Source: Kiritimatiellia bacterium (GTDB lineage: Bacteria; Verrucomicrobiota; Kiritimatiellia; RFP12; DVOR01). From it: a stretch of DNA of 64,000 bases. Of this stretch, positions 4,405-50,914 are shown piece after piece (within the stretch, counting starts at the first letter, position 1; each line of letters starts with the position of its first letter). Location: positions 201,286-265,285 of the forward strand of contig JAFXKZ010000002.1 of assembly GCA_017531445.1 (NCBI GenBank), given 5' to 3'. The translations under genes were made by a program, and so were the position numbers. The notes under the pieces are model-generated. The model did no database searches. It was not told the DNA's origin and saw only the letters and a program-made list of their open reading frames with translations.

Positions 4405-4422
4405 GTTCTCTGTCAATAAACG

Positions 4423-5841: not shown

Positions 5842-5850
5842 TGCTATAAT
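5842..5850 (+). promoter_or_regulatory. Extended -10 promoter element TGCTATAAT upstream of gpmI
   Basis: TGnTATAAT match 29 nt upstream of ATG 5880. GAAAGGAA RBS between them. Confidence 0.45.
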
Positions 5851-5879
5851 GAGCGCGTTTATTCAGAAAGGAATCTGTT

Positions 5880-9169: not shown

Positions 9170-9198
9170 GATTTCCGTTGAGTTTCCCGTTGCATTTG

Positions 9199-9234
9199 AT
9201 TGGCTGGTCGTTTCACTCGCCGGCCAATTTTTTG
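9199..9234 (+). terminator. Rho-independent terminator after folE
   Basis: ATTGGCTGG...CCGGCCAAT stem (one G-U pair) followed by TTTTTT. Confidence 0.65.
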
Positions 9235-9460
9235 AGGTTCATGCCAAATCGTAATTGTTTTTCGATTGTTACTTGCCACGTTTGCGTTAAGAAGACAATA
9301 CAAAACATACTTTTACTAAAAATTGAGTGAGTCCTTTCATTGAATTGATAACTTGTGATATTTGAATGTGCTAGAAGAAAAGATTGGTAAAAGGATAAAC
9401 AGAAGAGGTGAAATTGGCGCAGTATTTGAGTGAAAACTATGTTATACAAAGCAGTTGTTT

Positions 9461-9469
9461 TGCTATAAT
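9461..9469 (+). promoter_or_regulatory. Extended -10 promoter element TGCTATAAT upstream of thiC
   Basis: The same TTTTGCTATAAT string as upstream of gpmI. 44 nt upstream of ATG 9514. Confidence 0.45.
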
Positions 9470-9513
9470 TTGAACTGGTTTTAATTAGAATTGATTGTCG
9501 AGGATTTTTGATA

Positions 9514-22636: not shown

Positions 22637-22653
22637 AAATACCTCAATTCCGG

Positions 22654-22696
22654 ACAGCCTTTACTCCGTAAACGGGGTAGAGGCTGTTTCTTTTTT
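22654..22696 (+). terminator. Rho-independent terminator after the Na/Pi cotransporter gene
   Basis: ACAGCCTTTACTCCG-TAAA-CGGGGTAGAGGCTGT (two G-U pairs) followed by TTCTTTTTT. Confidence 0.7.
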
Positions 22697-26918: not shown

Positions 26919-26939
26919 GGAATGAAAGGAGGTAGAATT

Positions 26940-29900
26940 ATGAAAGCAAAACAGATTTTGACATTCTTTGCCGCGCTTGCGTTCAGTTGGCCATTGATGG
27001 CTGCGACCTTGCAGAGCTTTGTAAACGAAGAACACGTAGACGGTGATATCATTCTCGTGCCCGATGGTGAATATGAACCTTCGGATCTATCACAAGAAAC
27101 GCGCCGTTTGACGTTCCGTGCGGAAAATGAAGGAGAGGTCATCATTGATGGCGGCACAACAACGCGTTGTGTTGACTTGTCTGACTCTATTACTTTGGAA
27201 GGTTTCCTCTTACGTAATGGTAAGGCGGAGCAGGGTGGTGGTGTGCGTGGAGGCACCATTGTGCGTACAACAGTGCAGAACTGCACTGCGATTTTCGGCG
27301 GTGGCGCGTACAAAACCAATATCCGGGCTTCAATTTTCAAACACAACTCCGCAGAATTCTTTGGCACGGCGGCTTATGGCGGCACGGCGTTCTCTTCTCG
27401 CTTTGAGGAGAATACTTCTGCTTCTTATGGTGGTGGTATGGCAACACTCTTTGGTGTGACCACCGCAAACTGCGCCATCGTTAATAATCGTGCGTTGCAT
27501 GATGTGGCCGGCACAATGGCTTCACCGGTACAGAATATGGTGTACTATGCCAACGTTGCAGAACGCGGCAACTATGAAGGGTCCCCGACAAAAGATATTG
27601 ATGCTGTAGGAGGCGCACCGGAAGGTGAAGCATTTAAGTCGGTCTCCGGCGTGGACATCTTTACAAATGTTGCGATTGGCGATTACACCTTGGATGTGAC
27701 TAAGGCGGCCGAGCACGTTAAAGAAAAGGCAGACCCTTCGCTGGGTGGAAACTACGATGTGCTTTGGTACGATAAAGATCTTGCGGGTCGTCCGCGACTT
27801 TTGGATCAAGCCTTAGACATTGGTCCTTATGAAATTGCTGATACAATTACGGTAACGTGTGAAGTTAAAGGCGTGGGTGAAGTCGCAGTTGTGCCAACGG
27901 AAGTTCAGGAAGGTGATCCCGTCACGTTTACTGCGACATCTGATACCTATCAACGTGAATTTATTGGTTACTATGTGAATGACAGATTAGTCTCCACAGA
28001 AGCAACCATGACCTATGCACCATTGAAGGAAGATAAAATTGTTGCACGATTTGCCGGACTAACGCTTGACCCAACAAATGAGGCGTTGGACAGCCTCGAA
28101 GAAGTCATCGCCGCATTGCATCCATCAATTCTTGAAGAAGTTACCTTGACAAATGGCACCTTCGCAATTCCAGCCTTGGATAAACCTGTAGCATTCGTAG
28201 GTGCCTCAACAAGTGAAACAACGGTTAATCTTTCCGGGGATTGTAAGGGTGCCTATGTTATCAATGCAACAGTTACGGGCGCAGACGTTTCTAATGTAAC
28301 GTTGCATCGCTGTTTGGTGAATAATTTCTCGGGGGCAAATGTCACCTTGACTTCCTCGATAATTGCATCGACTTGCACCAATATCTCTGGTAAAGCAGTG
28401 AATACAACTGCTTGGAATGCGATGCCTGCCGGATTAACACAGGTGGACTGTGTCGTGTTATCAGGGACGACCAATACGGTAACAGATGCAATTTTGCTCA
28501 AGAATGATACAAATATTGATGCCGGGCAGGGTGGAAGCGACATTATCCCCTATGACAATTTTGATATTGCCGGTCGTCCACGTGTGAGTGGAACTAAGGT
28601 TGACTGTGGTGCACATGAATGTAATTACATTACGGTGTCTGTAGCGGCAGAAGGTTACTATGCTGCACTTTCACCTACGGTGGAAACTTATGACAAGTTG
28701 ACAGGCGATATTCTGACGCTCTCTTATGAATCGCCCCGGACATTCCGTGGGTGGAGACTTGCCGATGGTACGGTTCTTACGCGTGAACCCTCTTACACTT
28801 ATGTGTTGCCGGAGGGCGATTGCGTTTTGACCGCTTCATTTGAAGGTTTTGCGCTAACGCCTGAATCAACGATTCCAAATGATACTACGGCAGCAGATAC
28901 GATTGTCCTTGCGCCGGGTATCTATACGCAAGATTTCACAACTGCAGCCACAATTGTCGGTACCGGTCTACAAGATGAAGTGGTATTGACCGGTACAATC
29001 GCTGGCGGTGCTCGCTTGGAGGCAGTCTCTTTTGAAGATGCGACGCTTTCAAATGTGACTCTGAATCGTTGTTATGTATCGGGAGGCTCAGCAACGAATG
29101 TAACTGCGTATAACTCGATTCTTGTGAATCTCACCTCTGCTACTGGCACGTATATCAATAATACGACTGTCAATACAGTATTGCCTGAAACCGCGAAGAA
29201 TACACGCGTTTTGAATGCGATCGTTGAGGATTACACGCCACCTCAAGAAGAAGCAGACAAAGGAGGTTCATTGACAAATGATGAACGCCTTGCTTTGGGT
29301 GATTATGATTATTATGGTAACCCGCGTGTAAATAATGCGACCATTGATAATGGTGCTGTTGAATACGAATGGCCACCCTATATTGTGACGATTGATGTGA
29401 TTGGCCATGGTTTGGTAGAGCCGCGTGGAGCGGTTGAAGTGGTTCGTGGCGCACCCTTAACCTTTACGGTGAAGCAAGACCCGAAACATCCGCGTAATCT
29501 CGTCTCGGTTAGTGGCGCGGAGGATAAAGGTAACGGAATCTATTCAGTGTATCCGAATGCTGACGCTACTGTTACGGTTACCTTTGAAATGTTGCCGGAA
29601 GTTACGACCGATGATGCTCTTCAAGAAGCACTTGTTGAAGCTCAAGATGGCGAAACGATTACGGTGGCTCCTGGCACCTATGGCGCAATTGATGTGAAGG
29701 GGAAGCGTCTGAAGATTGTGGCTTCTGACTTGAATCCTGCGAATACCGTTATTGATGCGTTAGGGCAGGGACGAGCGGCTACCTTAACCGGGGGTGCAGA
29801 AATTATCGGCTTTACAATTCAAAATGGTATTGCCAATAAGGGGGCAGGTGTCTATCAAGGAACCGTGCGCCGCTGTATCATTCAAAAGAATACCCTGACC

Positions 29901-32900
29901 TATAATGGCTTTGGTGCAGGTGTGTGCGAAGTCTTTGCGGAGTCCTGCCTGATTGTTGATAATGGTTCTGAGAATGTCGTACGTTCCAATGGTGGAGGTG
30001 CCTCTACTTCAGACCTCTTAAACTGCACCGTCGTGCGCAATATTGCAGATAAGGGAGCAGGCCTCTATGACTGTACAGCGAAGAATTGCGTCATTGCGCT
30101 TAATACTGACCTCGCAGGTGCGGTTTCTGATTGGGCTGGCGACTCGGTTGCGCCCGACCCAACCGATTGTTGCACACCTACAACGGGTGGAATTACTGTG
30201 GATGCGGGAACACTCTTTGTGGATCCTGAAAATAATGACTGGCGTTTGCGTGAAGGTATCGCGTGTATTGATGCTGGAACGAACGATGACCGCTTAAGCG
30301 AAAAGGATGTGACAGGTGCCGTACGTGTTTATGATGATGCGGTTGATATGGGGGCTATTGAATGGAACTCGCCTGATTACAACATTACAATTGCCTTCCA
30401 GGGGCGTGGTATTGCAACGGTAGATGGTACAGAAATCGCATGGGATGCAGAAGCTTCTGCAAAGGTCCTGAGTGTGCCACGCACACAGCAGAAGCTTTCC
30501 TTGCAGTGGAAGGAAGATGCTGCAACTTCTGTGGTTCGTACCTTTGTGGGCATTATGGCCAATAATGCCATGCTTGAAGGTTCTACTGATGCCGTAAACA
30601 ATGCCTTTACATGGACGATTGCCGCAGAAGACACGGTAAATGTAATGTTAACCTTTATTGCAGAAGACCTTAGTGTCACAACCGCAGAGGAGTTAACTGC
30701 TGCACTTGAATCTGCGATTGCGGGCGAAACGATTAAGTTGGCCGAAGGTAATTATGACGTTGAGGTGGACATTGGCACTGGTGTCATTGTGGATGGTGCG
30801 TCGAAGGCTACCCTCTTACAGGGCGCGACCCTTGCAGATGGCGCAGTCTTGAAGCGGGTGACTGTTACGGGGGCTGGTGTGACCGGTCCTGAAACGGGTC
30901 GTGCTGAATTGATCCAGAGTATTGTTAAGGGGGTTACAGGCGTAGCCGTCAAGCAGAATATGGTCTTAAAGACCTGTTTAGTGTATGAAAATACAATCGG
31001 TGTGATGGATTCGACAGCGTACCTCTCTACGATTGTTTCTAACACCGCCGCGGGTGTGAGTGGCACTTCTCGCATTTACGGTACGGTTGTTTGGGGCAAT
31101 GGTGTGGATGTTGAAGAATCGGTTGAACGCATTGATTCCTATGTCGGTGGTAATCCGAAGTTTACCCTCCCAGCACCTGATGGGGAAGACTATACTGTGC
31201 TTACTCAATCACCTTTGATTGATTTGGCCGAAACGGCACAATGGGAAGGGTTTACCGATGCAGATCGCAGCTTGGCCGATTTGGCTGGTAACGCCCGCCC
31301 TGCCTTAAATGGTTATGATATCGGTGCTTATGAATTGCAAGTAGCCGCAGATCCGTTTGCCTTGTGGACTTGGTATGGCTCTGCCTATACTGTAGATGGC
31401 ACTTGGAGTGGTTCAAATTGGCGTAAACTGATTTATGGCGCACCCTACAACTTACCCGCTAATGAATCTGCCCGCTTTATTGATCGTGATGGTTTCGCGA
31501 GTGCAGAGGTTGCGATAGATAGTGTTGTAACCATTCCTTCACTTCAACTGGAAAATGCGAAGTGTGCGCTTGCTTTCCGCGATGCCGGCGGTCGATTGAC
31601 TGTTAATTCCGGTGTGATCAAGTCGAGTTCTGGTGACCTGACTTTGGCTGCACAGATGGATATTAAAGAGCAGCTCTATCTTTCAGCAGGAGCATTGACT
31701 GTAGAGGAGGGGGCTTCGGTTGCTGTGGATGGCAAGTTTGTTGCCTCCAGCACCCCCGTGACAATGACGGGCGGACTCCTTTCTGCCGCTACGAAGAGCG
31801 ATTTGTTTGGCACAACTCAGTTCACGTTGACGGATGGGACGTTTGAATTTGGCGATTACTTGAACATCCGCGACTCGGTCTTTGTTGACCTTGCAGGGGG
31901 CACTGTAACAGGCGGTGAAATCAGTGTGGCGCAAGATACGCGTGATGCGTTGCGTTTCTCGGGTGCGGATGTAACCGTTAGTAAGATTGAAACTGGCGAT
32001 GAGAGCAGTGGTCGTTACGGCAACATTGTTCAGACTGGCGGTACGCTCACAGTAACCGGGAGTGGGTCAGGAAAGAGTGCTCCCTTGCATATCTCTCACT
32101 GGAGCGGGTGGTCAAACTACACAATGACGGGTGGTCAACTCTTCGTCCCTAATGGAGAAGTCCGTATTGGGCAAGATGGTAATGGTCATTTGATTTTAAG
32201 TGGCGGTTATGCTGAAGTAAAGTCGATTGGCATTACGAATGGTAAAGTTACGCTTGCGGGCGGCACACTGAAAGTGCAGACTACGCAAACGCTCCCAATT
32301 ACCTTTACGGCAGGGACTGCTTCTCGCGTTATTGCTCCAGATGCTGAATCGGCTTATCTTCAGATTACGCCGAGCGAGGCAGGAGATATTATCTTTGGTG
32401 AATCGCTTGGCTACTTCCAAATCGGTACATCTTCGGAATGGGTTACCGTAACAAACAATAATCTGATCTTTGAAAATGGCGTCCGCTTAAGTGCAAAGAT
32501 TGCTTTAACAGGCACGGGAAAAGGAATTACGGTGCCTGGAAGTGGTACTGCGCCAGTAATTACCAGTGGCAGTTTCTCTGTTGACCAACTTGCATTTTCG
32601 GGCGACTTGTCGGAAGAAGAAACAATGCTACTCACAATCAGAGTGTCCAGTGGTCATACCGCAATTACCGCAGAACAATTTACGGTTACCGGACGGTGGG
32701 CAGGAAATTGTTCTTTACGCGTTGCCGGTCCTGAAGAGGCAAACGGCTATGCCATCTACAATGTCTATGCCACGCGCACGGGTACTCCTGCAGTGGTGGG
32801 GACACCTACATTAACCTTGGCCGGCGGTACAACCGAATGGACCTCCAACAACTGGTCGCCTGCATTTGTTGCAGGAGGAGATGCCATTGTTCGTGTGATG

Positions 32901-44900: not shown

Positions 44901-47900
44901 GGTGGAAATATCACCAATCTTGGTATTACCGTGGAGGAAGCCGCTTCCTTTGATCTGTCGGCCCTTGTTCAGAACAACAAGGGCATTAAGAAGTGCGGCG
45001 CAGGCGCGATGACACTTTCGGGTGAGAACACCTCAACAGGCAGTTTAATTGTGAATGAGGGTACTGCTGTGATTACGGGTGCTTGGGCTGGTGCCACCTC
45101 TGTGGCTGCGGATGCAACGCTTACTGGCACTGGCACTATCGGTGGCACATTGACCTTTGCCGAAGGTGCCACGTTCAAGGTTAATCCCTCGGCTGCAAAT
45201 CCCTTGAAGGTGACTGGGACAATCTCGGGAACGGCGGCGATTGCGTTGGCCGAAACTCAAGAGGTCATTTCAAAGATAGCACTTATTGCTTCGAATGAAA
45301 CAATTGATCCGGCCAACTTTGGTGCAATCTCGGGTTATACATATGTCGTTGAAACGGTAGATGGCGTCCATACGCTTTATGCAGCAGTTGCCGCTCCGGA
45401 AGCATTGACTGCAACGCTCTCAGGCAATGTCGCATGGGCTGACGTACCGTGGATGAGTGATGAATCAATTGCAATTTATCCTGAAACGATGAATGTTTCT
45501 CAGGTGACAACGATTACCTTGAATCTTACAGCTGATACCACGCTCACCTTCGGGGATGTACAAGCGACCTTCCCGGCTTTGACGACAGTAAAAGTCAATC
45601 CTATGGCAGAGAATCTCACGTTTACTATCGCAGGTGACCGTGTGACCTTGCCAACGGTAACGACAGACTTGTTTGTGCAGCCTACGCCAATGGTCTTCCT
45701 TTCAACGGCGACTTCGCTTACAATTGAGAAATTCCAGCCGAAACTCAGTGGTGAGTATGCTGTAGGCATCGGCGTCTCGTTCGTGAACAGTTGCACTGTC
45801 GTAAACTTCCCGACAACTTATCGTCTCTTTGGCGATGGATCGGTATTGACCAAGCAGGTCTCGGCGAATGCGAGCGGCATTCAATTGGCTGGCGGCATCG
45901 TCAAGATTGCAAATAGCGACATCTTGCAGTCGCGTCCGCTCTTTGTGGAGCAAGGGGCAACGTTTGACCTCAATGGTAATACGCATCTCGGGTCACTCAC
46001 CTTAAATGGTGGTAAGCTGACGAATACAGGAAATGCAATTGGTACGAATGAACAGCAATTGCGTAATCTCGTCCTGACAGCGGATTCTGAAGTTGAAGTC
46101 AATGAAGGTCATGTATTCCACTTGATTGATGGTAGTTACGCATTACAGACGCTCACCTTGAATGATCATACCTTAACCAAGTCGGGAACAGGCAAGATGC
46201 AGTGGTGTAATGTTTCACCGGATGGTGGCACAATTACAGTTACTGGCGGCATCCTCCTGATGCGAGCCGGCGGTCAGGCAGAGAATGGGACAGACCGTGC
46301 TGCTGACACCTGTACGCTTACGGCTGTAACGTTGGAAGAGAATGGCGGCGAGATTCAGATTACGCGTAATTATGCACTTGCCGATACCGTAACACTCAAG
46401 GGTGACATTTCTATCGCTTCGGTGCTTTCGGGTGACGGAGCCTTGAATGTTGCCACCGGGTCGACTACCCTCTCGGGTGCGAACACTTACACGGGTAACA
46501 CAACGATTACTGAAGGTGCAACCCTGAAGGTGACGACGAAGGATGCCCTTGGTTCCACGCGTAATGCTAGCGGACAGATCGCACTCGGTAATACGACCCT
46601 CACAGGAGCAGGCTCTCTGGAGCTCGCCTTCGCTGATGCCGAAGCATCTTTGGAAATGATTGGGAATGGCGGCACCTTTACTGGTGACATCATTGTGACG
46701 GGCGGCACCTTGAAATTCCCGAATGCTTCGGGAGGTTCAGGTCCTGTTCATGGCCGTGTGATTACGGTCACAGGCGCGAATGCAGTTTTGACGACGGGTA
46801 CCAATAGCGATGCGACGGGTTGGAATGTCTCCGGTCGTCAAAAGTTGGTCTTGGCGGATGGTGCTCAATTCAAGGTCTATAAGCGTGACACCTTCAAGAC
46901 GCCGCTTGAAATGACAGGTGCCAGCGTGATCTTAATGAATGGTGCAAACGATGGTGGCCGAGGATTAGATTGGTATCAATCACCATCGTTAACCGTGAAG
47001 GCAGAAACAGGTGCCACGGCTGAATCCCCCACGGAATCGTTTATCACGGTGGCTGCTGATGCAACTGCGAATGACCAAAAGATCAATATTCGTGATGATA
47101 ATGGCAATGCCCGTTGTTCAATTCCCGCAAATGTTGAAGCGAATGCCCGCTTGACGATTGATGCCCATCTCTATGGTGATGATATTGTTAAAACGGGCGA
47201 AGGCGAATTGGTATTGACCAATGCCACAAACGCTTATAATGCAACGACAATCAACGGCGGTACGTTGACCGTAACGGGTGCAACCGGAACGGGTGCTACC
47301 ACCATGGCTGTGGGGACAACCTTGCGTGGCACAGGCACAGTGAAGGGCGCACTTACCTTTACAAATACCTTGGCAGAGGACGGGACAACCGTATCGGCTA
47401 TGCCGACCTTGATTGTTGATGCGGCTTCGGATGCGGATCCCGCCTTGACTGTGAATGGTGCAATCACTGGAAAGGTCTCCGTGCGCTTTACGACCGCGAT
47501 TACCACGCAAGCCTTGGTGCCTGTGTTGCATTCGTCGCAAGCAATTGAACCTGAAAACTTCATGATGGAAACCGCATTACCAGAAGGTTATGCACTCCAG
47601 GTGATTGAAGACGAAGGTCTTTATACGCTTGCCGTGGCAAAGGAAAACTTCCAGATTTATACAGAACTTCATGCTACGGTGACGGAAAACGCAGCTTGGA
47701 CAGCCCTTTCATGGACGGATGGCGAGGGCAACGCTGTTGAATCCGGCGATATTGCCTGGAGCCTTGTCGAAACCGTTGTTCTGACAGCGGAGAATGGCGC
47801 AGTTGTTACTATGGATGTGGCACTCCCTGTTCTGACAGCACTCACAATTGAGGGCGGCTCATTGACCTTGCAGAATCATTTGGAAACAAAACTCTCTGCA

Positions 47901-50855
47901 AGCACTGCGTTGGCTGTGAATAATGGTGCTTCCATCAAATTGGTTGATGTTTATGCGGCTTCTGCAAACATAACACCTACTGGCACAGGTGCAATTACAT
48001 GGGCACCCGTGGAAGCGGTCACGCATACAGGGAAGTTTACCCTTCCGGCAACGATTTCTTTCATCACAGAAGGCGATCTCACCTTAAATAATACCGGCAA
48101 CGTATTTAATGGTTCGTTGACGGTGGCTTCGGGTACGCTCACCTTGGCGACCGCATCGCAAGGTTTGGCAGGTGATTTGACTGTCGCGTCTGGCGCTACG
48201 CTTGTTGGAAGCTCAAATGATGCTCCGACATATAGCAAGTCAACGACAATCACAGTTAATGGCACCTTGCGCTTGGCAGAAGGTATTCGTTGGACGATTG
48301 GTGATGATAACACCTTGAATCCGATGGTATTGGGTGGTGGCGCACGTCTGGAAGGCACAGGGAATACGCCGCTTAATTGCCAGACAACGGCCTTTGACTT
48401 CTTCAATAACAATGCGACCTTGAAGGTGACTGGCAAAAATGCTGTTATTGCAGGCCTGATGGGTGCACATACTGGAGGAGCCGAAAAGACGTTGAATGTC
48501 ACCTTTACCGACGGCGCATCGCTCATATTGGAAGGTGGCGTTGTTGCGAATGCGTATTCCATCAATACCGCGCTTGAGGAAGGCGCCGCCGCAGCAACTT
48601 TGACAATCACAGGCGAAAAAGCTGCCACTGGCACACTTACGATCGGTGCAGGGATCACGTTAACGGGGACAGGTTCATGGGCCGGCACGCTCGCCTTCAC
48701 TGAAGGCGCTACGCTTGCAGTGGTCGATCCCGACGAGGTGCTCTCTGTAACGGGTGCTATTACAGGCGCAGCTGCGGTTATCCTGCCGGAGGGTGTGGTC
48801 GCACCTGAAGGAGAGGAACGTCTGACGGTTCTCTTCACGGAAAGCACTGCTTCAACAGTGTCCTTTACCTATGGTGATGGCTCTACTCACATTGTTGTTC
48901 CAGAAGCAACGGAGGGAGGCGTTAATTACAACTTGGTGCGCAAGCCTACATACTCAGCCTTGTCGGCGACGGTGACAGGAAATGCCAACTGGTCTGAATT
49001 GATTTGGATGGCAGGTGAGACAGAGGTTACAAATCCCGTGTGGGGAGCCGTTACGGCGGTGACTTTGACGGCGGAAGCGGATGCTACGGTGACGCGCGAT
49101 GTAGCGACACTTTCCCTCGCTTCGCTCACGGTGGCGGATTCGGAATACGCCTTGACGCTCTCAGGCACAACATTGCCTGCGGCAGCAACCCTTATGGTGG
49201 ATGGCAATGTTTGCCTGGGTGAAGGTGTCGTAACAGTGATGCCGAATTTGCGTGGTGCGGGTACGCTGACCTTCATGGGTGGTGAGATTATTTCAAGGCT
49301 CGCAGGTAATGCTGACACAAGTTACGCTTATAATGATTTCACTGGTCGTTGGATTCTTGAAAATGGCACAACGATGCGTATCCGTGGCGGGGGAGCCCAG
49401 ATGGGGCAGCTCAACTGGAATTCCACCGTGGAAGATAGCGGTCAGATTGAAGTGCGTCAGGGTGCTCGCCTCGTGCTTGAAGCTCAAAACGTCTTCGGTT
49501 GGGGTGCAGTGAATGACCTCCATCAGCGTAAGGTCTTGGTTGTAGATGGTGGCGAGGTTGAAATCTCCGCTGTTGAAAACTACATCCGCCGTACGATTGA
49601 GTTGAAGAATGGTGCTACCTTGGCATGTCCTGCTACGAATAGTACTGTTTACTTCTCGCGTGGTGCTACAATTGAAGTCACTGAAGGTGAAGCAACCATT
49701 TCTGGTATGTTGAATATCAGCTGTGATAATGCTGGTAATTCCGTTGGTAAGGGGGCAACGATTCGTGTGGATGAAGGCGCCACGCTCAATCTCCCTGGCT
49801 CAATCGCTTATGGTAAGAATGGTAAAACCTTCGCCTTGACCTACACGGGTGGTGGTACGGTGAACGTTACCGGTGAGAACTCCTATCATACCTACACTGA
49901 AACAATTGTGGATGAGGGCATGACCTTCATTATGAGTGGCTCCCATATCGCTCCTGACGAAAATACACTCAAGCCTTATACGATTAAGGCGGGAGCAACG
50001 CTCGCAGGTTCGGGTACGATTAATGGTGCGGTGACCTTTAATGAGGGTGCAGTTGTGGTGGCCGATGGTCAGGCTTTGACCTTGGGCGCTGTGACTTCTG
50101 TAAATACCTTCGTTGAGGTGACGGCATCGTTGGCGACTGCTGATGATGCGGTGACGGCCTTCACTGCTACGAGTGCACTGGATGTCAATCAGTACGCAGT
50201 GGCGCCTGAATATGCGCTTGAAGTGGTGCCTGCTACAGAGGGTGAAACAACGACCTATGCCTTGGTGGTGAAGCGCGCAAGCTTCGTGACCTTGACGGGT
50301 ACGGAAGATTTCGCGGCTGAAACACAGCAGGTCGTTCGCGACATCGTGATTGATGCCTTGAAGGCTGAGTCGGTGACGGAAGGCGCATATGCTGTTGATG
50401 TGGAAGTTTACACGAAGGGTAGCGAGACACCTAAGACGCCGACGGCGGATGAGGTGGATGCGCTCGTGGGTTGCTTCATCAACGTGGAAACCGTGGAAGT
50501 GAATACAGAAACGAATACCGCGAAGGTGAAAATCGCCTATGAATTCGGTCTTGCAGACGTAACGGTTGATGCCAATCTCAATGTCATTTTCAAGGCATTG
50601 GTGGAACGTATTGATGAAGCGCGTAATGATGAACGGGGTTTGGCAGATTATGCCGACGGCGTAACGTTCTCGATTACGGATACGCTTTCCGGCGAAGTCT
50701 GGGATATCGCCGACGAAAATGTGGAAGCACCGCAAGATGAGGTAGGTGCAGTTTATCTGATGTTGCCGGATGCTTATGAAGTGGAAGGACAACAACGGTC
50801 GGTCCTGACCAACTTCATCGGCACGCGTAAATTCAAGGTGCGTGTAAAACGTTAA
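26940..50855 (+). CDS. Giant (7971-aa) secreted beta-helical surface protein with PATR-type repeats, InlB-B-repeat-like modules and an embedded discoidin-like domain
   Basis: AAGGAGG RBS 7 nt upstream of ATG 26940. Sec-type signal MKAKQILTFFAALAFSWPLMAAT. Uninterrupted 23.9-kb frame. Five N-terminal units capped by D-x-G-A-x-E. Canonical PATR string SGDGALNVAAGTLTLSGANTYTGGTQIAEGA. Eight supermodules each headed by W-x2-L-x-W. Thr/Gly/Ala/Val/Asn-rich. Confidence 0.9.
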   Translation: MKAKQILTFFAALAFSWPLMAATLQSFVNEEHVDGDIILVPDGEYEPSDLSQETRRLTFRAENEGEVIIDGGTTTRCVDLSDSITLEGFLLRNGKAEQGGGVRGGTIVRTTVQNCTAIFGGGAYKTNIRASIFKHNSAEFFGTAAYGGTAFSSRFEENTSASYGGGMATLFGVTTANCAIVNNRALHDVAGTMASPVQNMVYYANVAERGNYEGSPTKDIDAVGGAPEGEAFKSVSGVDIFTNVAIGDYTLDVTKAAEHVKEKADPSLGGNYDVLWYDKDLAGRPRLLDQALDIGPYEIADTITVTCEVKGVGEVAVVPTEVQEGDPVTFTATSDTYQREFIGYYVNDRLVSTEATMTYAPLKEDKIVARFAGLTLDPTNEALDSLEEVIAALHPSILEEVTLTNGTFAIPALDKPVAFVGASTSETTVNLSGDCKGAYVINATVTGADVSNVTLHRCLVNNFSGANVTLTSSIIASTCTNISGKAVNTTAWNAMPAGLTQVDCVVLSGTTNTVTDAILLKNDTNIDAGQGGSDIIPYDNFDIAGRPRVSGTKVDCGAHECNYITVSVAAEGYYAALSPTVETYDKLTGDILTLSYESPRTFRGWRLADGTVLTREPSYTYVLPEGDCVLTASFEGFALTPESTIPNDTTAADTIVLAPGIYTQDFTTAATIVGTGLQDEVVLTGTIAGGARLEAVSFEDATLSNVTLNRCYVSGGSATNVTAYNSILVNLTSATGTYINNTTVNTVLPETAKNTRVLNAIVEDYTPPQEEADKGGSLTNDERLALGDYDYYGNPRVNNATIDNGAVEYEWPPYIVTIDVIGHGLVEPRGAVEVVRGAPLTFTVKQDPKHPRNLVSVSGAEDKGNGIYSVYPNADATVTVTFEMLPEVTTDDALQEALVEAQDGETITVAPGTYGAIDVKGKRLKIVASDLNPANTVIDALGQGRAATLTGGAEIIGFTIQNGIANKGAGVYQGTVRRCIIQKNTLTYNGFGAGVCEVFAESCLIVDNGSENVVRSNGGGASTSDLLNCTVVRNIADKGAGLYDCTAKNCVIALNTDLAGAVSDWAGDSVAPDPTDCCTPTTGGITVDAGTLFVDPENNDWRLREGIACIDAGTNDDRLSEKDVTGAVRVYDDAVDMGAIEWNSPDYNITIAFQGRGIATVDGTEIAWDAEASAKVLSVPRTQQKLSLQWKEDAATSVVRTFVGIMANNAMLEGSTDAVNNAFTWTIAAEDTVNVMLTFIAEDLSVTTAEELTAALESAIAGETIKLAEGNYDVEVDIGTGVIVDGASKATLLQGATLADGAVLKRVTVTGAGVTGPETGRAELIQSIVKGVTGVAVKQNMVLKTCLVYENTIGVMDSTAYLSTIVSNTAAGVSGTSRIYGTVVWGNGVDVEESVERIDSYVGGNPKFTLPAPDGEDYTVLTQSPLIDLAETAQWEGFTDADRSLADLAGNARPALNGYDIGAYELQVAADPFALWTWYGSAYTVDGTWSGSNWRKLIYGAPYNLPANESARFIDRDGFASAEVAIDSVVTIPSLQLENAKCALAFRDAGGRLTVNSGVIKSSSGDLTLAAQMDIKEQLYLSAGALTVEEGASVAVDGKFVASSTPVTMTGGLLSAATKSDLFGTTQFTLTDGTFEFGDYLNIRDSVFVDLAGGTVTGGEISVAQDTRDALRFSGADVTVSKIETGDESSGRYGNIVQTGGTLTVTGSGSGKSAPLHISHWSGWSNYTMTGGQLFVPNGEVRIGQDGNGHLILSGGYAEVKSIGITNGKVTLAGGTLKVQTTQTLPITFTAGTASRVIAPDAESAYLQITPSEAGDIIFGESLGYFQIGTSSEWVTVTNNNLIFENGVRLSAKIALTGTGKGITVPGSGTAPVITSGSFSVDQLAFSGDLSEEETMLLTIRVSSGHTAITAEQFTVTGRWAGNCSLRVAGPEEANGYAIYNVYATRTGTPAVVGTPTLTLAGGTTEWTSNNWSPAFVAGGDAIVRVMEDSTLDMDAYKTVNNLTIEIAEGKTLTIAKGSSLSAAGTVTLVGGGTLRLENAFIYGSIATCDLAQIISNVSSQEWQGTALNGVPIRVEQSATLSNLNEIDLSIAEGVTVGLPTTCRGLLVSDGACTLSTDSATTFTGEAVFGGAVTLVWNTTFNGSLVLGALPATSEKVFYGDVEVTLPEGVDLTIPSGQITSGAYFKKTGEGKLTLSDASYNANLRLGGVVEFTQDTTINGALHIEEGAVVFLPYDATLIATGEVRIEPSVRFILTTSPEANVTLADAYTLLSSNTAAGLVIDQLATLSVMWQNIPADETLSNPQVALAGDMLVYTLTRESAKVWTGATSSDWSTASNWSDNVVPEADDTVRFTDAATTKTVELSSSVPVGVMTFASGDYTLNGGMNLNSFTGKTDVNHLAGTTAWVDTFIERGVYTIYAGAKATLAQEMGYVYKGSFAGEGALELIGGSFTLAAASVGYSGAFTVGTDTSLTLVNAESLYAATVNVAGTLAVESDASVATVVMEDGGQLRLSKDYTFTVREEITGDVAISIATLPDEVGDWEIMALPMNTAASFTLLNETSAEDKFIAFLSQSEDRLILSLRPTTDIAWASKNVTTGADVWNVYGTPVATTVTAGKRVWLTDVEGVTAATISLPENPSSVMVEAVETVYTINNATAVTMPMTVMAGSQVVLRTNATLSELSNGGVITVQNATLDLTETQLVGRGKVIAGTGGIVRISAQTLAESTMTFSCEGGKLEVVTTEDFSMPTNRIPDNCSGLIKEGEGTLYLPPAAMSSTITVNDGVLMPTGAIALKARYFKFEPHERFAGSAWWLPATGLSDFVTTLSGERQAWPDGAKIVRFDSGVTNKIQIGITGDSQSSIDGISGKIANVFDNDLNTQLLWNDWHDSYGTGDKWRRNYFVIDAGEQGFKFTGYNVGTPDNLDAFFWKWSVAVANDISNWRPNTELSTKTADEDTIWQTIDERTFPEDKTLFKTSAWMNAGEYAARRQSGFWSEYTGSVNLASASAVLDLSKAVGTSGILQDEVEMATVSGVGTLKVPTSLKVTADTLSMNTLHLTGTDVLKTPISVKSTAVISTITMDEAVSAAYNESPSADFVLIEGYTGTIAPTLSGMQDPGDGGTWQLAVIDGNLHLGLANSPRFLATTLLSESENWSSLAWTDILGNPIEPDWAAVEEITIKMTSTSPDKVTLTLPSGIAVSGIERIVFDFGDTESKRVCLTGSGTLQTKVLEIKGEHRGTLLPDSTTLLTAESLEVNAPEWDTSPKLLDMFGGSSASWRAPNVPMGIIAKTTTEAIASKVLGTALITVREGTLKLRKEEQFDSMTRELHVAAGATLDVNGCPISNNLTLQGGTLTNSGAGIGTHKRQNYNITLTADSVISGVSDYYSLNNGYNVHTLTLNGHTLTKRGTCAFGFYNANIEGGDGTIVVEAGTLRVQPHNSNVRTLKDVTFVEQGGTVEISAPVTLSGTVTLDGGICSAAVTVAADSKVRGTGTIAGALTLNSGAKIEVYSLAEPLKLSGDYPATITMSTMEGLEYPATVVPILSIANATEATRPYVTLENLPGSRKLEWNEDYTVLNVVPQDALSTETTVKATLSGDANWSTLNWTDSNGVGINPDWRIVTNVTLTATADAIITRDVATEAITSLTIAESSFKIDLQGTALSALTTLAANGDVSFGLGMLTTMPTALSGDAEITFYTDVATTLGGGDTTYAYNDFTGRWIIEDGATLTIGGEGGGKMGQLNWNSAIADSGQIEVRQGGTLTLGTNHAFGWADGANQRNRTVLVVDGGRVVCDANYDQYVRRTFELKNGAELYSSATTPGKGISLGRDTNILVTEGEASLTGTMFIGCDSQHSNQQNILNIIAQPGATLKIPASINNGANQSNADVDVEDMKFSGGGTIVLSGTTLNSYTRMQVAADTTLLVNGTVSFVKPITFEANAIVGGTGSIAPVSTYSSTASVTFSEGTKIKIVDETDPLSIQVGAYTTFTPPSGGIGVIFPEDMVSGNSVKVLTSTSLLATSDLSVPDGYTTTVETSGSWYTLVCSKTSLDQFPTILTDVSGEMDWDALTWQNESGASLDSSLMDWSVVTTAVLRVTDNTILTLPENIASGNQIATLKVEFVKEGSTLTFAGATASVPVIQVIGVKSGRLATTATALTATALSVESGVVGLDVATLNAITSLSDSVTYTLYGDGTLNKALPGTTPVTIASGTVKPSAANQISGRMVTINSGATLDVNGFAQACTVTLAGGTLTNTGAALSDQSAWQTYGITLTADSTIGGTADMRSLNTNWAAHTIALGSRTLTLDNTSTLYWTNASIENGAIQVARGTLDIGYGWDKDNGWAKKEAEATLRNVTLTVAEGAKLTLNRGMTIEGTVVFSEGATFNKDVAIILAQPDGQTASLTVPTSAITGETRIEVDSLTLTGTAAPAVLPTFTGITVNVGETLKTAIAGTTTARILLATLEGNEPVVNNVPDGWHVEIVDNTLSLANNAFPTHLVTTCTGSVTWDDLPWTNASSQTEVVYADVDKELVTAITLKVQGDATLFVTDIKTLLPNVETLNVVYETADALLTFAGDAIVLPALALSGENGSIHSTATTIAIDGMTSSQAAVGLGVGIWNVVSWTSPMPTLYRLYGNGETLNKELPEVATPLTTYGDITLEKVPTGSAAITIASGKLTFEPSESEVTLTTPISGGSLACKGTTTYTIAAANRCVVTTLEIGAETVVKATAQNALQTTTITGEGTLIGVAYLVSGTVSEDWTGVVRFEDVASYTYLNLSNYGNAQSKIELKNLGTANGNVYLVNSTYEVAADLQLEGANYINNGFYANSYTFSGDLTGDGSLTWGTYGTPNDCYFFTGDLSGFTGNLTQLRANRIVLGNNTNVTQDALTIDGTTTWNGTLTANADRYIRVMGSAILSGSGTLASNVTFQAEATLDVTAGTNLTVAEGKTVTLPEALTVKLPVDTEMPVTILSTTAFAGSEGLDDCVVTVEGAEGAFRLRKTATALQVDEFEELDTLTINAATGTAWSSIAEQLENSKQALSADAVLTINFGDGDTPGSFVFDNAEALTFASVVVTGSAGGTVTSSEGALTFTSFTRESACTNLTVDAKVFTAAYGSGAQTIDGWTLGITVPAEGNVTLSNAFTVNSNAILKKVGAGTLSLTSTSNTLHGGLDVKSGTLILASADRGIKGDVVVAQGATLATTANDAINYSASSTQTITINGTVQVGAKWTIFANNKIVLGAGAVLDTYNNYAEPLDFFRANCPIMVTGADAIIRAVMFNHNNDTSHSVKITFAEGASLTIEGNVETIPVTTELAEGATSATLALTGTKTSTSRLTVGNGITLAGDGTWSGPATFNGGKIQVVTNLEQPITIKGAVTASQPIEVLFDETAEVPVKVLASTNALTEEMLAVRTGYSRVVETTTESESTIYTLCYDEADDTDVTAIATTINETVEWSALAWTNIESGNTIDLNTVTAENITSVTLNVAETATLSLADVKTAFPNAVVTINYTAQGKTLTLAGESVVLPAITVTGESGMLKTTATSLVMDALSVVPMGFGFDVALLNSATTLTALPTAYTLYGDGSTLTKTLPATATVTLQSGTIKLGANNVLNTANTIILNADATLDLNGKEHDGSLTLNGGKLTNTGNVIGMNLQQLRNLVLTADSEIEVNDGHAFHLIHSGYGVQTLTLNAHTLTKSGTGTMAWCNVSPANGTVKVTNGTLEMRSGNNGTGANNTCTLTAVTLEENGGEIQITRNYALANTVTLKGEISIASVLSGDGALNVAAGTLTLSGANTYTGGTQIAEGAKVIATSIGTGEVTGAGDIELLINATAVSVPNIIKVAYTGAATLTASGDNGAIVENTTNVTWPSGKQYIFNGGTHALTFYPGTLPNDKSTETEDSASIQVKANTTLTLKARDFGGWTGSHFNNIALSVKGENAKVIAASFDSHPGCFVGRVYLADGATIQGGDNNTDAINFFGNADDANIHVTSGSASWTNKLWIGNGGGGNITNLGITVEEAASFDLSALVQNNKGIKKCGAGAMTLSGENTSTGSLIVNEGTAVITGAWAGATSVAADATLTGTGTIGGTLTFAEGATFKVNPSAANPLKVTGTISGTAAIALAETQEVISKIALIASNETIDPANFGAISGYTYVVETVDGVHTLYAAVAAPEALTATLSGNVAWADVPWMSDESIAIYPETMNVSQVTTITLNLTADTTLTFGDVQATFPALTTVKVNPMAENLTFTIAGDRVTLPTVTTDLFVQPTPMVFLSTATSLTIEKFQPKLSGEYAVGIGVSFVNSCTVVNFPTTYRLFGDGSVLTKQVSANASGIQLAGGIVKIANSDILQSRPLFVEQGATFDLNGNTHLGSLTLNGGKLTNTGNAIGTNEQQLRNLVLTADSEVEVNEGHVFHLIDGSYALQTLTLNDHTLTKSGTGKMQWCNVSPDGGTITVTGGILLMRAGGQAENGTDRAADTCTLTAVTLEENGGEIQITRNYALADTVTLKGDISIASVLSGDGALNVATGSTTLSGANTYTGNTTITEGATLKVTTKDALGSTRNASGQIALGNTTLTGAGSLELAFADAEASLEMIGNGGTFTGDIIVTGGTLKFPNASGGSGPVHGRVITVTGANAVLTTGTNSDATGWNVSGRQKLVLADGAQFKVYKRDTFKTPLEMTGASVILMNGANDGGRGLDWYQSPSLTVKAETGATAESPTESFITVAADATANDQKINIRDDNGNARCSIPANVEANARLTIDAHLYGDDIVKTGEGELVLTNATNAYNATTINGGTLTVTGATGTGATTMAVGTTLRGTGTVKGALTFTNTLAEDGTTVSAMPTLIVDAASDADPALTVNGAITGKVSVRFTTAITTQALVPVLHSSQAIEPENFMMETALPEGYALQVIEDEGLYTLAVAKENFQIYTELHATVTENAAWTALSWTDGEGNAVESGDIAWSLVETVVLTAENGAVVTMDVALPVLTALTIEGGSLTLQNHLETKLSASTALAVNNGASIKLVDVYAASANITPTGTGAITWAPVEAVTHTGKFTLPATISFITEGDLTLNNTGNVFNGSLTVASGTLTLATASQGLAGDLTVASGATLVGSSNDAPTYSKSTTITVNGTLRLAEGIRWTIGDDNTLNPMVLGGGARLEGTGNTPLNCQTTAFDFFNNNATLKVTGKNAVIAGLMGAHTGGAEKTLNVTFTDGASLILEGGVVANAYSINTALEEGAAAATLTITGEKAATGTLTIGAGITLTGTGSWAGTLAFTEGATLAVVDPDEVLSVTGAITGAAAVILPEGVVAPEGEERLTVLFTESTASTVSFTYGDGSTHIVVPEATEGGVNYNLVRKPTYSALSATVTGNANWSELIWMAGETEVTNPVWGAVTAVTLTAEADATVTRDVATLSLASLTVADSEYALTLSGTTLPAAATLMVDGNVCLGEGVVTVMPNLRGAGTLTFMGGEIISRLAGNADTSYAYNDFTGRWILENGTTMRIRGGGAQMGQLNWNSTVEDSGQIEVRQGARLVLEAQNVFGWGAVNDLHQRKVLVVDGGEVEISAVENYIRRTIELKNGATLACPATNSTVYFSRGATIEVTEGEATISGMLNISCDNAGNSVGKGATIRVDEGATLNLPGSIAYGKNGKTFALTYTGGGTVNVTGENSYHTYTETIVDEGMTFIMSGSHIAPDENTLKPYTIKAGATLAGSGTINGAVTFNEGAVVVADGQALTLGAVTSVNTFVEVTASLATADDAVTAFTATSALDVNQYAVAPEYALEVVPATEGETTTYALVVKRASFVTLTGTEDFAAETQQVVRDIVIDALKAESVTEGAYAVDVEVYTKGSETPKTPTADEVDALVGCFINVETVEVNTETNTAKVKIAYEFGLADVTVDANLNVIFKALVERIDEARNDERGLADYADGVTFSITDTLSGEVWDIADENVEAPQDEVGAVYLMLPDAYEVEGQQRSVLTNFIGTRKFKVRVKR
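35305..35840 (+). other. Discoidin (F5/8 type C)-like lectin domain embedded in the giant protein
   Basis: ARYFKFE...IANVFDNDLNTQLLWND...RRNYFVIDAGEQGFKFTGYNV...WSVAVANDISNW...WQTIDERTF matches the jelly-roll carbohydrate-binding pattern and interrupts the beta-helix repeats. Confidence 0.5.
37713..38560 (+). repeat. Giant-protein supermodule type A, copy 1 (in-frame coding repeat)
   Basis: ANWSTLNWTD...YAYNDFTGRWIIEDGATL...GQLNWNSAIADSGQIEVRQGG...VLVVDGGRV...ELKNGAEL is paralogous to 48984..49810. Confidence 0.7.
43803..44312 (+). repeat. Giant-protein recent internal duplication, copy 1
   Basis: NGGKLTNTGN...LRNLVLTADSE...TLTLN.HTLTKSGTG...CTLTAVTLEENGGEIQITRNYAL...SGDGALNV. 44097-44168 differs from 46311-46382 at 1 of 72 nt by eye. 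Confidence 0.8.
46005..46530 (+). repeat. Giant-protein recent internal duplication, copy 2
   Basis: Collinear with 43803..44312 at an offset of 2202-2214 nt (a 12-nt indel between the copies). Confidence 0.8.
48984..49810 (+). repeat. Giant-protein supermodule type A, copy 2 (in-frame coding repeat)
   Basis: ANWSELIWMAG...YAYNDFTGRWILENGTTM...GQLNWNSTVEDSGQIEVRQGA...VLVVDGGEV...ELKNGATL. Confidence 0.7.
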
Positions 50856-50876: not shown

Positions 50877-50914
50877 CAGCGGCTTCACGTAACGACGTGA
50901 AGCCGCTGTGTTTT
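50877..50914 (+). terminator. Rho-independent terminator after the giant gene
   Basis: CAGCGGCTTCACGT-AACG-ACGTGAAGCCGCTG (14-bp perfect stem) followed by TGTTTT. Confidence 0.75.

Follow-up and report, generated by a model that had tools for sequence, protein, structure and literature searches.

Type Va autotransporters with PATR passengers combine a Sec signal and PATR units with a C-terminal 12-strand barrel. Barrel-less PATR-repeat proteins are found in the Verrucomicrobia, Planctomycetes, and Lentisphaerae, and many of these end in PEP-CTERM. In systems of the LapA/LapG type, a giant RTX adhesin that is secreted by the type I route has its own periplasmic cysteine protease, and C-terminal sorting domains are matched to processing enzymes in the T9SS CTD/PorU, LPXTG/sortase, and PEP-CTERM/exosortase systems. 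Two-partner secretion (FHA/FhaC) joins an exported partner and a giant beta-helical protein in a two-gene unit. PEP-CTERM is known to occur in the PVC superphylum (PMC4960237), and giant proteins are enriched in the Lentisphaerae and other PVC phyla, where they are almost uncharacterised (PMC11573180). Huge proteins are common in the Lentisphaerae, which are listed as enriched in proteins of more than 5,000 aa (PMC11573180).

Here we describe a locus within a 64-kb window (the whole stretch of DNA analysed) that bears on how giant proteins with no barrel, PEP-CTERM, or adjacent secretion system reach the cell surface and stay there. The giant protein encoded here shares its superphylum, a predicted Sec signal, and PATR units without a barrel with the barrel-less PVC proteins, but it lacks PEP-CTERM or any C-terminal helix and has instead a globular family-specific tail and an upstream partner. 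It resembles the Omnitrophota giants (bioRxiv 10.1101/2023.11.21.568195) in being a giant, apparently secreted PVC protein with adhesion or carbohydrate domains and a conserved genomic partner set; in this case, however, the neighbour is one soluble multidomain protein rather than a secretion system, and no sequence relationship to the Omnitrophota proteins was found. The reading that we favour, at a probability of roughly 0.5, is a fibre with a conserved head, a variable stalk, and a conserved tail that works together with its partner.

The giant gene and its product

The features of the giant gene are as follows:
26926..26933, + strand: Shine-Dalgarno sequence AAAGGAGG, 6 nt 5′ of the ATG at 26940
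26940..50855, + strand: giant gene (7,971 aa, 829.5 kDa, pI 4.4)
26940..27002, + strand: signal-peptide-like N-terminus MKAKQILTFFAALAFSWPLMA, judged from the sequence
26940..31739, + strand: conserved collinear 'head' (aa 1 to ~1,600), 45–65% identity in distant orthologues
29619..29966, + strand: NosD/CASH-like parallel beta-helix stretch (TIGR04247, E 3.4e-10; 39 bits, well under the cut-off of 300)
31188..31340, + strand: choice-of-anchor Q domain, the best of two stretches (NF041518, 61.5 bits; cut-off 25)
36384..50246, + strand: stalk of ~9 divergent modules of 430–830 aa, from repeat analysis and orthologue comparison
44241..44303, + strand: top-scoring PATR unit GTLTLSGANTYTGGTQIAEGA (Pfam and TIGRFAM)

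The giant gene is real, and codes for an acidic 830-kDa protein; its source is an uncultured PVC bacterium of the animal gut, related to Candidatus Spyradenecus. The ORF occupies 26922..50855 (7,977 aa counted from its first ATG), but the ATG at 26940 is preferred because of the 6 nt spacing from AAAGGAGG and because orthologue P0009 starts with MKAKQILTFF. A stop-free frame of this length has a chance probability of ~1e-180, and the frame is also uninterrupted in orthologues from independent assemblies. Start site, orthologues, and chance probability thus uphold the 7,971-aa open frame reported in a preliminary description of this DNA, and the computed mass agrees with the '0.8-MDa-class' protein proposed there. 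Its placement among the largest bacterial genes was overstated, since reported bacterial proteins reach 85,804 aa (bioRxiv 10.1101/2023.11.21.568195), and the size is normal for giants of the PVC superphylum (PMC11573180; 10.1101/2023.11.21.568195).

A frameshift near the 3′ end in five related loci (L001–L005, discussed below) is in keeping with a pseudogene or an assembly artefact, in which repeats have been collapsed or expanded or the contig is chimeric. Against this, the internal repeats are only 24–66% identical at the protein level, and the best DNA repeats are just 75–83% identical over 200–300 nt, too divergent for repeat collapse. Moreover, an orthologue with 98% identity is collinear over the first 6,500 aa, and the head-to-tail junction is in frame in six independent assemblies; together with the frame length, these make an artefact or pseudogene extremely improbable.

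Intact orthologues range from 4,222 to 8,114 aa and derive from Ca. Spyradenecus and 'Kiritimatiellae' gut MAGs. Candidatus Spyradenecus is placed in the Lentisphaerota in the NCBI taxonomy, and certain related MAGs are labelled Kiritimatiellae. In the titles and abstracts of the literature on Spyradenecus there are only taxonomic or abundance mentions.

The predicted signal peptide is followed directly by ATLQS, which is kept in orthologue P0010. The sole hydrophobic 19-mer of the protein (Kyte-Doolittle mean >1.8) is at aa 6–24, in accord with the Sec signal described previously, and the protein has no membrane-spanning segment. The head contains three divergent internal repeats with beta-helix-type units, and is followed by a collinear and moderately conserved middle region (~aa 2,250–3,500). 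Each stalk module begins with a W..L.W motif, and the number, content, and order of modules vary among orthologues, whereas the head and tail are conserved. Five stretches match PATR (PF12951, 37.9 bits with a cut-off of 27; TIGR02601, 33.1 bits with a cut-off of 19.85), and the strings quoted earlier as canonical PATR are present; these units are a tiny fraction of the protein, confined to its second half and all within the stalk. About 95% of the protein has no family matches, and PDB sequence searches with the head (aa 1–1,550) and with aa 3,021–7,971 gave none. The PATR, NosD-like, and choice-of-anchor Q matches point to beta-helix or surface-protein repeats, and the protein is presumably an elongated beta-helical fibre.

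A conserved two-gene cassette

Three features define the cassette:
22652..22689, + strand: terminator-like hairpin (17-bp stem and T run) after a Na/Pi cotransporter gene
22896..26918, + strand: partner gene (1,340 aa, 147.6 kDa), directly 5′ of the giant gene
50877..50908, + strand: terminator-like hairpin (14-bp stem, 9 G-C pairs), 22 nt after the stop codon

The giant protein is not an orphan: its gene stands second in a two-gene cassette that is strictly conserved. The partner gene lies directly 5′ of the giant gene in nine of nine independent loci, separated by 3–22 nt (L023 is from the same organism as L013 and is left out of the nine), and the other neighbours differ among the cassette loci. 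The first hairpin marks the upstream boundary of the unit, and because hairpins flank the pair, the two genes are likely co-transcribed as an operon. Rfam and tRNA scans of the window returned nothing.

Known secretion and anchoring features

The giant protein has the Sec-type N-terminus of a type Va autotransporter (as read from MKAKQILTFFAALAFSWPLMA) and PATR passenger repeats that score above cut-offs. The likeness extends to the body, which is probably elongated and beta-helical like a passenger, and in both cases the conserved functional end is far from the C-terminus. It is, however, 5–10 times larger than a typical passenger, with just five PATR units in ~8,000 aa. Its tail is acidic and hydrophilic, no barrel of the PF03797/TIGR01414 type is present in the last 300 aa, and the terminus (...VRVKR) is not aromatic. 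Five PATR units give no expectation of an autotransporter barrel, and the remaining architecture, with its NosD/CASH-like and choice-of-anchor Q units in the head and its long modules lacking family matches, is not autotransporter-like; the giant protein is not an autotransporter. A type V system with a barrel or translocator too divergent to recognise would account for the Sec signal and the PATR units, but is very improbable. No barrel family is found in the last 300 aa and no Pfam match in the last 600 aa, in each case at very loose thresholds, and the C-terminus (pI 4.1–4.3, GRAVY ~0 over the last 300 aa) ends in Lys/Arg. There is also no N-terminal TPS domain, the tail is modelled without a barrel (see below), and the soluble partner gives no POTRA or Omp85 signal.

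The arrangement resembles FHA/FhaC in its two-gene unit encoding an exported partner and a giant, apparently beta-helical protein. It differs in gene order, and haemagglutination-activity and TPS families are absent from the first 4,000 aa of the giant protein; the partner is a soluble multidomain protein of helices and beta-sandwiches rather than an Omp85/POTRA barrel, and no adjacent TpsB (POTRA plus Omp85) is present in the scanned window ORFs. That scan covered ORFs of at least 150 aa, leaving out opposite-strand and overlapping shadow ORFs, and yielded no TPS, type I, usher, Omp85, or secretin families, in agreement with the absence of two-partner, type I, and usher genes reported previously for the 64 kb. 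Usher, secretin, and Gsp genes, which would mark a chaperone-usher, curli, or type II cargo, are likewise absent from the 64 kb and from the flanks of nine related loci. RTX/haemolysin-type matches are lacking in the giant protein, as are ABC, MFP, and TolC genes in the window. Zero T9SS tail families (TIGR04183/TIGR04131) were found with NCBIfam in the last 300 aa at E<=1, and the lineage is PVC and not Bacteroidota. PEP-CTERM, LPXTG, and other tripartite tags gave no NCBIfam match and there is no hydrophobic 19-mer beyond the signal peptide, in or beside which no lipobox Cys is found, the first Cys being aa 77.

With no barrel, tag, or anchor match in the protein and no known translocator in the window, passage across the outer membrane cannot be assigned to a described route. 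The earlier statement to this effect therefore stands as regards known anchors and translocators, although it overlooked the conserved partner and the tail domain. A Sec signal with no outer-membrane translocation feature would also suit a giant structural protein of the periplasm or envelope interior that never crosses the outer membrane. We regard this as improbable: units of the choice-of-anchor Q, PATR, and CASH types usually belong to surface proteins, the partner has glycan-binding modules of a kind typical of extracellular proteins, and the rapidly reshuffled stalk fits external selection.

The C-terminal tail

Two features are located at the 3′ end of the giant gene:
50245..50246, + strand: indel-prone linker before the tail, from comparison with L001–L006
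50247..50852, + strand: family-specific C-terminal domain (~200 aa, pI 4.3), conserved and non-repetitive

Judged by its conservation, the tail is a family-specific terminal domain and not a mere acidic region. The preliminary description of an acidic, non-repetitive end was correct as to its acidity and its ...FKVRVKR terminus, but not its length of ~270 aa; the last repeat module extends through the 70 aa that precede the tail. The core motif is CF...TATVKI.YEFGL...VD...V.F.A.VEG...ADYA.GV.F, the conserved FKVRVKR forms an amphipathic basic strand, and identity across orthologues is 31–60%.

A tail profile compared with 1.84 billion representative proteins gave 16 matches, all at the extreme C-terminus of large proteins and none belonging to an annotated family. 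A broadened alignment compared with a set of 5.8 billion proteins gave no further matches. Pfam (E<=10) and NCBIfam (E<=1), the libraries expected to hold barrel, PEP-CTERM, LPXTG, and T9SS models, yielded no family for the last 300 aa. No known sorting or translocator domain is thus recognised there, and no C-terminal hydrophobic helix is present, as the absence of any barrel or sorting tail noted previously had indicated. A mediocre AF2 model from a seven-sequence alignment (pLDDT 69) predicts an alpha/beta domain and a beta-sandwich, with no credible PDB neighbour by Foldseek (best E 0.037). The tail is found on essentially one protein per genome. Distant tail-like domains occur on smaller proteins, and in P0021, the sole such case with a readable upstream flank, the upstream gene is not the partner.

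The partner protein

Four regions of the partner are distinguished:
23097..23411, + strand: thioredoxin-like N-terminal domain (aa ~68–172), tentative, from an AF2 model
24165..24677, + strand: beta-sandwich (aa ~424–594), CBM- or ConA-like, with weak Foldseek matches to CBM22, CBM28, and ConA
25368..25670, + strand: most conserved core (aa ~825–925), from an orthologue alignment
26565..26852, + strand: C-terminal F5/8 type C (discoidin, glycan-binding) domain (PF00754, 30.9 bits on the C-terminal 372 aa; cut-off 28.2)

The sole hydrophobic segment of the partner is its signal peptide, and it is accordingly predicted to be a secreted soluble multidomain protein; a Cys in the signal region has no lipobox context and is absent from orthologues. 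The whole AF2 model is mediocre (pLDDT 62) and has no significant PDB neighbours by Foldseek. The thioredoxin-like domain matches 3vfi with a probability of 0.99 but an E value of 0.28, and the Cys of its WDWCEVGS motif is missing in some orthologues. Long helical repeats are also present. The discoidin domain has a weak PDB profile match to the CBM32-type 4a42, and is annotated (precomputed PF00754) in 12 of 15 homologues. The partner was also considered as a translocator, which is ruled out as it is soluble and has no barrel signal.

The core contains the motifs NFFGDSI, GREIGAVCGGIS, GGQPGHCA, and WEIDSNV, and Cys870, His896-Cys897, and His922 are kept in remote homologues too. It has no Pfam match (E<=10) and no PDB profile match, and AF2 pLDDT is ~24. 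By eye, the spacing C870-26-H896-16-D912 fits the Cys-His-Asp of transglutaminase-like/BTLCP proteins. A transglutaminase-like protease is nevertheless a low-probability idea, with no family or structure match, an unmodelled core, and an Asp912 that is not conserved in remote homologues.

The giant protein and its partner share with LapA/LapG a megadalton-class repeat protein, with conserved ends and a variable stalk, coupled to an exported Cys/His protein. The giant protein differs in its predicted Sec signal, its lack of RTX, and the lack of ABC, MFP, and TolC genes nearby; the partner differs from LapG in its 1,340 aa and its lack of any BTLCP or transglutaminase family match. In common with sorting-domain systems, a conserved extreme C-terminal domain accompanies a co-conserved exported protein with invariant Cys/His, but there is no set of cargo proteins, no HMM match, and the partner is only a putative enzyme.

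These likenesses raise the unlikely prospect that tail and partner form a previously undescribed dedicated system of gut Lentisphaerota/Kiritimatiellae that docks, covalently attaches, or releases the megadalton fibre at the outer membrane. The tail would be a recognition domain that the Cys/His core of the partner processes, cross-links, or docks, with that invariant core as a putative catalytic or recognition centre. By analogy with sortase/LPXTG, PorU/T9SS-CTD, and LapG/LapA, the fibre would be anchored or released. Consistent with this, the tail occupies the terminus in every case and, unlike the stalk, is conserved, it ends in a conserved amphipathic basic strand, linkage is strict in all nine independent loci, and the partner, with its invariant Cys870 and His896, is better conserved than the giant protein, at 48–64% compared with 31–60% for the tail. 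Several observations do not sit well with it, including the failure to match or model the core as a protease or transglutaminase, the loss of Asp912 in remote homologues, the solitary state of those homologues, tail-like domains on smaller proteins (with P0021 lacking the partner), and natural variants with a detached tail. If this holds, sortase-type or LapG-type control would have an analogue with a single cargo, and the display of barrel-less PATR proteins on the PVC surface would gain a new explanation.

The remote homologues L024 and L025 contain PA14 and discoidin domains and have no giant gene alongside, and one of them has a sulfatase gene nearby; a glycan-active enzyme would suit these observations better than a docking or maturation factor would. 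Possible, though still doubtful, is therefore a released extracellular matrix or substrate-capture protein co-secreted with a glycan-active enzyme, in which the fibre is not retained by the cell, the tail is only a structural end-cap, and the partner would bind or degrade carbohydrate on the substrate that the fibre also engages. The discoidin and CBM-like domains and long helical repeats of the partner agree with such a role, as do the absence of any kind of anchor in the giant protein and the persistence of frameshifted tails in several samples. No CAZyme catalytic family is detected in the partner, however, the one-to-one adjacency with gaps of 3–22 nt suggests more than common substrate use, and the tail is kept even where lineages have reshuffled the stalk, which speaks for a specific function.

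Proposed export and display of the fibre

A fibre that remains functionally linked to its partner is the reading that we prefer. Sec would export both proteins, and the giant protein would fold into an elongated fibre that probably exits the periplasm through general machinery whose genes lie outside the window. The leading candidate for this step is type II secretion, and only as a default choice, because no secretion-system gene lies within 64 kb. In its favour, Sec, Tat, and a type II system are all present in one cultured representative of the Kiritimatiellaeota (PMC5148204), which were reported as a novel phylum allied to the Verrucomicrobia and Lentisphaerae, and giant proteins of the PVC Omnitrophota adjoin type II-like loci (10.1101/2023.11.21.568195). 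The variable stalk would display the conserved head to a ligand, and tail and partner may cooperate either at the cell-proximal end or at a target glycan, in docking, maturation, or substrate capture. As a docking or maturation pair, tail and partner would give common animal-gut bacteria a surface-display mechanism of a new kind; if they are not such a pair, the locus would encode another giant adhesin-like protein on a general secretion pathway, ordinary for the phylum.

Variation at the tail linker

The locus offers three testable objects: the two-gene cassette, the ~200-aa tail, and strains with natural tail frameshifts. In L001–L005 there are 25 extra nt at the linker, placing the tail in another frame, whereas L006 has 27 extra nt and the frame is kept. 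The tail is detached by the frameshift and may thus be dispensable, which counts against a fibre that depends on tail and partner together. The difference from the in-frame L006 is 2 nt within an indel-prone linker, and this is a simpler reading than a programmed frameshift.

Organization of the giant gene and its partner

The giant protein is not an orphan. A conserved gene for a secreted protein (the partner), missed in the preliminary description, lies directly upstream in the same orientation. The features of the pair in the window are as follows.

22652-22689, 17-bp hairpin with a T run, upstream edge of the pair
22896-26918 (+), partner gene, 1,340 aa
26940-50855 (+), giant gene, 7,971 aa
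50247-50852, family-specific C-terminal domain of the giant protein (the tail)
50877-50908, 14-bp hairpin, downstream edge of the pair

The partner ORF stops 21 nt short of the ATG at 26940, and because the two hairpins bracket the pair, the genes look like a two-gene operon and are apparently co-transcribed. A partner homologue is present immediately upstream of the giant gene, with a gap of 3–22 nt, in every related locus that has a readable flank, and the remaining neighbor genes vary.

Loci with the partner or a homologue of it directly upstream of a giant gene
L010, partner 1,367 aa, giant 6,008 aa
L011, partner 1,432 aa, giant 6,764 aa
L012, partner 1,368 aa, giant 4,222 aa
L013, partner 1,425 aa, giant 5,472 aa (L023 is from the same organism and hence a repeat)
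L018, partner 1,354 aa, giant 8,114 aa
L020, partner homologue, giant 7,220 aa
L019, L021, and the window, same gene order

The linkage holds both ways, as the reverse look-ups began from the partner; only 15 partner clusters are present in a set of 5.8 billion proteins, approximately the number of tail-bearing giants. Such strict linkage argues for a specific role, and the partner and tail may be a docking or maturation pair. The surrounding window genes are housekeeping genes (thiC, prfA, htpG, dnaX, recR, rpsA, murC-like, and others) and the locus is therefore chromosomal. Aligning the tail against one genome per GTDB species identified four loci, two in Candidatus Spyradenecus sp. MAGs (placed in the Lentisphaerota, PVC group, in the NCBI taxonomy) and two in 'Kiritimatiellae bacterium' MAGs recovered from the colon of buffalo and the rectum of yak.

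The partner protein

The partner is a 147.6 kDa protein in which the signal peptide is the only hydrophobic segment, and it has a C-terminal F5/8 type C (discoidin) domain scoring above the Pfam cut-off. An AF2 model of residues 30–1,229 (pLDDT 62) combines a thioredoxin-like domain (Foldseek match to 3vfi, probability 0.99 but E 0.28) with long helical repeats and a beta-sandwich resembling CBM/ConA folds. The best conserved segment is at residues ~825–925, where NFFGDSI, GREIGAVCGGIS, GGQPGHCA, and WEIDSNV are invariant across the family, and this core region is modeled without confidence (pLDDT about 24). We considered C870, H896, and D912 as a transglutaminase-like triad, but the results lend it no support: there is no match to a Pfam (E≤10) or PDB profile, the AF2 confidence here is low, and the Asp is not kept in two remote homologues. 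These derive from metagenomes and retain both the Cys and the His-Cys motif, as well as a His farther along.

Both of these remote homologues stand alone. One (L024, 8408-11992; 1,194 aa) begins with a thioredoxin-like region as the partner does, carries PA14 and discoidin domains, and is near TonB-like and sulfatase genes with no adjoining giant gene; the other (L025, 1507-3807; 766 aa) has a discoidin domain. Both keep the NFFGDSI, GVCG, and GQPGHCA motifs. The partner is thus one member of a broader group of PVC proteins that are secreted and bind glycans. This appears to be an uncharacterized family with an invariant Cys/His core, one branch of which came to be linked with the giant gene. 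These stand-alone homologues count against an essential sorting role. Alternatively, the partner may be an enzyme active on glycans and secreted alongside the giant protein, in which case the tail would act as a structural cap.

The giant protein and its repeats

The giant gene lies within a single open frame (26922-50855, + strand) that from its first ATG would encode 7,977 aa. Initiation from the second ATG, at 26940, is the better fit, as AAAGGAGG lies just upstream (26926-26933) and the N-terminus of a close orthologue, P0009 (MKAKQILTFF...), agrees with this start; the coordinates and the 7,971 aa product of the preliminary description are therefore correct. The product has a mass of 829.5 kDa and a pI of 4.4, with abundant Thr, Ala, and Gly. 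A stop-free run of 7,971 codons has a chance probability of ~1e-180 at the window base composition. The internal repeat copies share 24–66% protein identity, the best DNA repeats being 75% identical over 300 nt and 83% over 212 nt, and on sequence comparison the repeats are old. Given this divergence, their collapse or expansion during assembly gives no cause for concern, and the uninterrupted frame is not a repeat artefact. Orthologues range from 4,222 to 8,114 aa. The claim of an exceptional gene size was not sustained.

The PATR repeats first noted in the sequence are confirmed by PF12951 (37.9 bits, cut-off 27) and TIGR02601 (33.1 bits, cut-off 19.85), each with five units, all in the second half of the protein and occupying a very small share of its length. 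The first half contains a NosD/CASH-like beta-helix stretch and two matches to the choice-of-anchor Q family (NF041518; 61.5 bits, cut-off 25). The stalk has about nine modules of 430–830 aa apiece, with a W..L.W motif at the start of each. Chunk-wise comparison with orthologues defines four zones.

Zones of the giant protein
Head, aa 1–~1,600, collinear and best conserved, 45–65% identity in distant relatives
Middle, aa ~2,250–3,500, collinear, moderately conserved
Variable region, ~aa 3,500–7,750, modules matching out of order or without any match
Tail, C-terminal end, conserved, 31–60% identity in distant full-length orthologues

Fibre-like surface adhesins have the same plan, with conserved ends and a stalk of evolvable length. 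P0009 is a 98%-identical orthologue, 485 aa shorter, that matches at 87–99% across most of residues 1–6,500, whereas residues 6,751–7,750 (~47190-50250) have a best-hit identity of only 36–48% and are non-collinear. This divergence in the late stalk indicates, at the sequence level, that the C-terminal stalk is exchanged by mosaic recombination between close strains.

The head also has a weak match (aa 607–641) to the InlB B-repeat family (Flg_new_2), a divergent copy of which is present in a 362-aa ORF at 62879-63967 (-) together with a weak FGE-sulfatase match.

The C-terminal tail

The protein ends in ...IGTRKFKVRVKR, and as previously proposed has no known barrel or sorting tail there: the last 300 aa have zero matches in Pfam (E≤10) or NCBIfam (E≤1), the last 600 aa have zero in Pfam, and a Kyte-Doolittle scan found no C-terminal hydrophobic helix. 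These libraries should hold models for the autotransporter barrel, T9SS tail, PEP-CTERM, LPXTG, and related signals. The non-repetitive C-terminal region does exist, and by homology is ~200 aa (50247-50852) rather than ~270 aa, the preceding 70 aa being part of the last repeat module.

A search of 5.8 billion proteins gave six tail homologues, and a tail profile read against all 1.84 billion cluster representatives gave 16 matches at E≤0.001, all at the extreme C-terminus of their proteins. Those apparently complete are 989 to 7,486 aa, and several of lesser length are truncated by the contig or the gene call. On these alignments the tail is a family-restricted terminal domain that is conserved yet very rare, with a core of CF...TATVKI.Y[ED]FG[LIV]...VD...V.[FV].A.VEG...[AV]D[YF]A.GV.F that precedes an amphipathic basic strand at the terminus, F.V[RK]V. 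Its conservation also favors a specific role. The AF2 model (pLDDT 69, moderate, from a shallow alignment) places a beta-sandwich after an alpha/beta subdomain and as modeled is not a barrel; the best Foldseek match in the PDB has an E of 0.037. The two halves of the tail differ in their nearest relatives (P0001, P0004, P0008, related proteins), which likewise points to mosaic recombination. In two assemblies (L016 1946-6533; L017 331-4918) an apolipoprotein N-acyltransferase (Lnt) gene is followed, after 1–2 nt, by the gene for a 989-aa protein whose C-terminal domain is weakly tail-like (E 3e-4).

At five loci (L001-L004, from several samples, and L005) gene callers make the tail a separate 215–222-aa ORF that shares 53 nt with the giant ORF (10001-10053 in L001-L004; 3236-3288 in L005). 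Alignment places 25 extra nt at the position of 50245/50246, putting the tail in another frame. In L006 the linker before the tail is longer by 27 nt and the frame is kept, and in-frame read-through to the tail is seen in the window, L006-L010, P0002, P0003, P0005, and P0006. The window frame is thus the intact state and the linker is prone to indels. From sequence, the 25-nt insertion may be a real tail loss, a recombination scar, or a site of frameshifting; these variants count against an essential sorting role.

Relationship to known secretion systems

The giant protein has a Sec-type signal, the sole segment with a 19-residue Kyte-Doolittle mean above 1.8, and has no membrane segment, known sorting tag, or barrel. 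It differs from type Va autotransporters in missing the defining barrel, and from two-partner secretion in having no TPS domain and a partner that is not Omp85; nor does it belong with type I RTX adhesins, T9SS cargo, or PEP-CTERM/LPXTG-tagged proteins. The reported lack of any known anchor or sorting signal is thus real, and the fibre may be released rather than retained. It resembles the PATR proteins without a barrel, of which PVC bacteria have many, with a loose likeness in gene organization to giant adhesins that have a dedicated exported partner. The preliminary observation is confirmed and its interpretation partly supported; we regard the protein as a giant PVC surface or secreted repeat protein. 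No source names the tail, partner family, or cassette beyond 'hypothetical' or 'discoidin domain-containing protein', and all three appear to be undescribed so far.

We suggest that the giant protein would form an elongated, largely beta-helical fibre, leaving the periplasm via general machinery whose genes lie elsewhere. The default route would be a type II system, since one is reported, together with Sec and Tat, in a cultured Kiritimatiella (PMC5148204) and PVC Omnitrophota have type II-like loci beside giant protein genes (10.1101/2023.11.21.568195). Tail and partner, the latter secreted, co-conserved, and carrying glycan-binding modules, would act jointly, at the end of the fibre closest to the cell or on the glycan that the fibre targets. 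The main value lies in tying the question of secretion and anchoring to concrete, testable parts.

Other features of the window

The 340-nt thiC leader (9170-9507) has no TPP riboswitch match at the Rfam gathering threshold or at E≤0.1; thiC is usually riboswitch-controlled. A 1.47 kb segment of slightly lower G+C (4405-5879), between rmlD-like and phosphoglycerate mutase genes, contains no ORF longer than 106 aa, tRNA, or Rfam match even at E≤0.1. At 15-2820, the gene for a 489-aa FHA-domain protein, which has a further match to the YscD cytoplasmic-domain family, overlaps the next gene, for a 457-aa PEGA-domain protein; the two are in themselves no secretion system.
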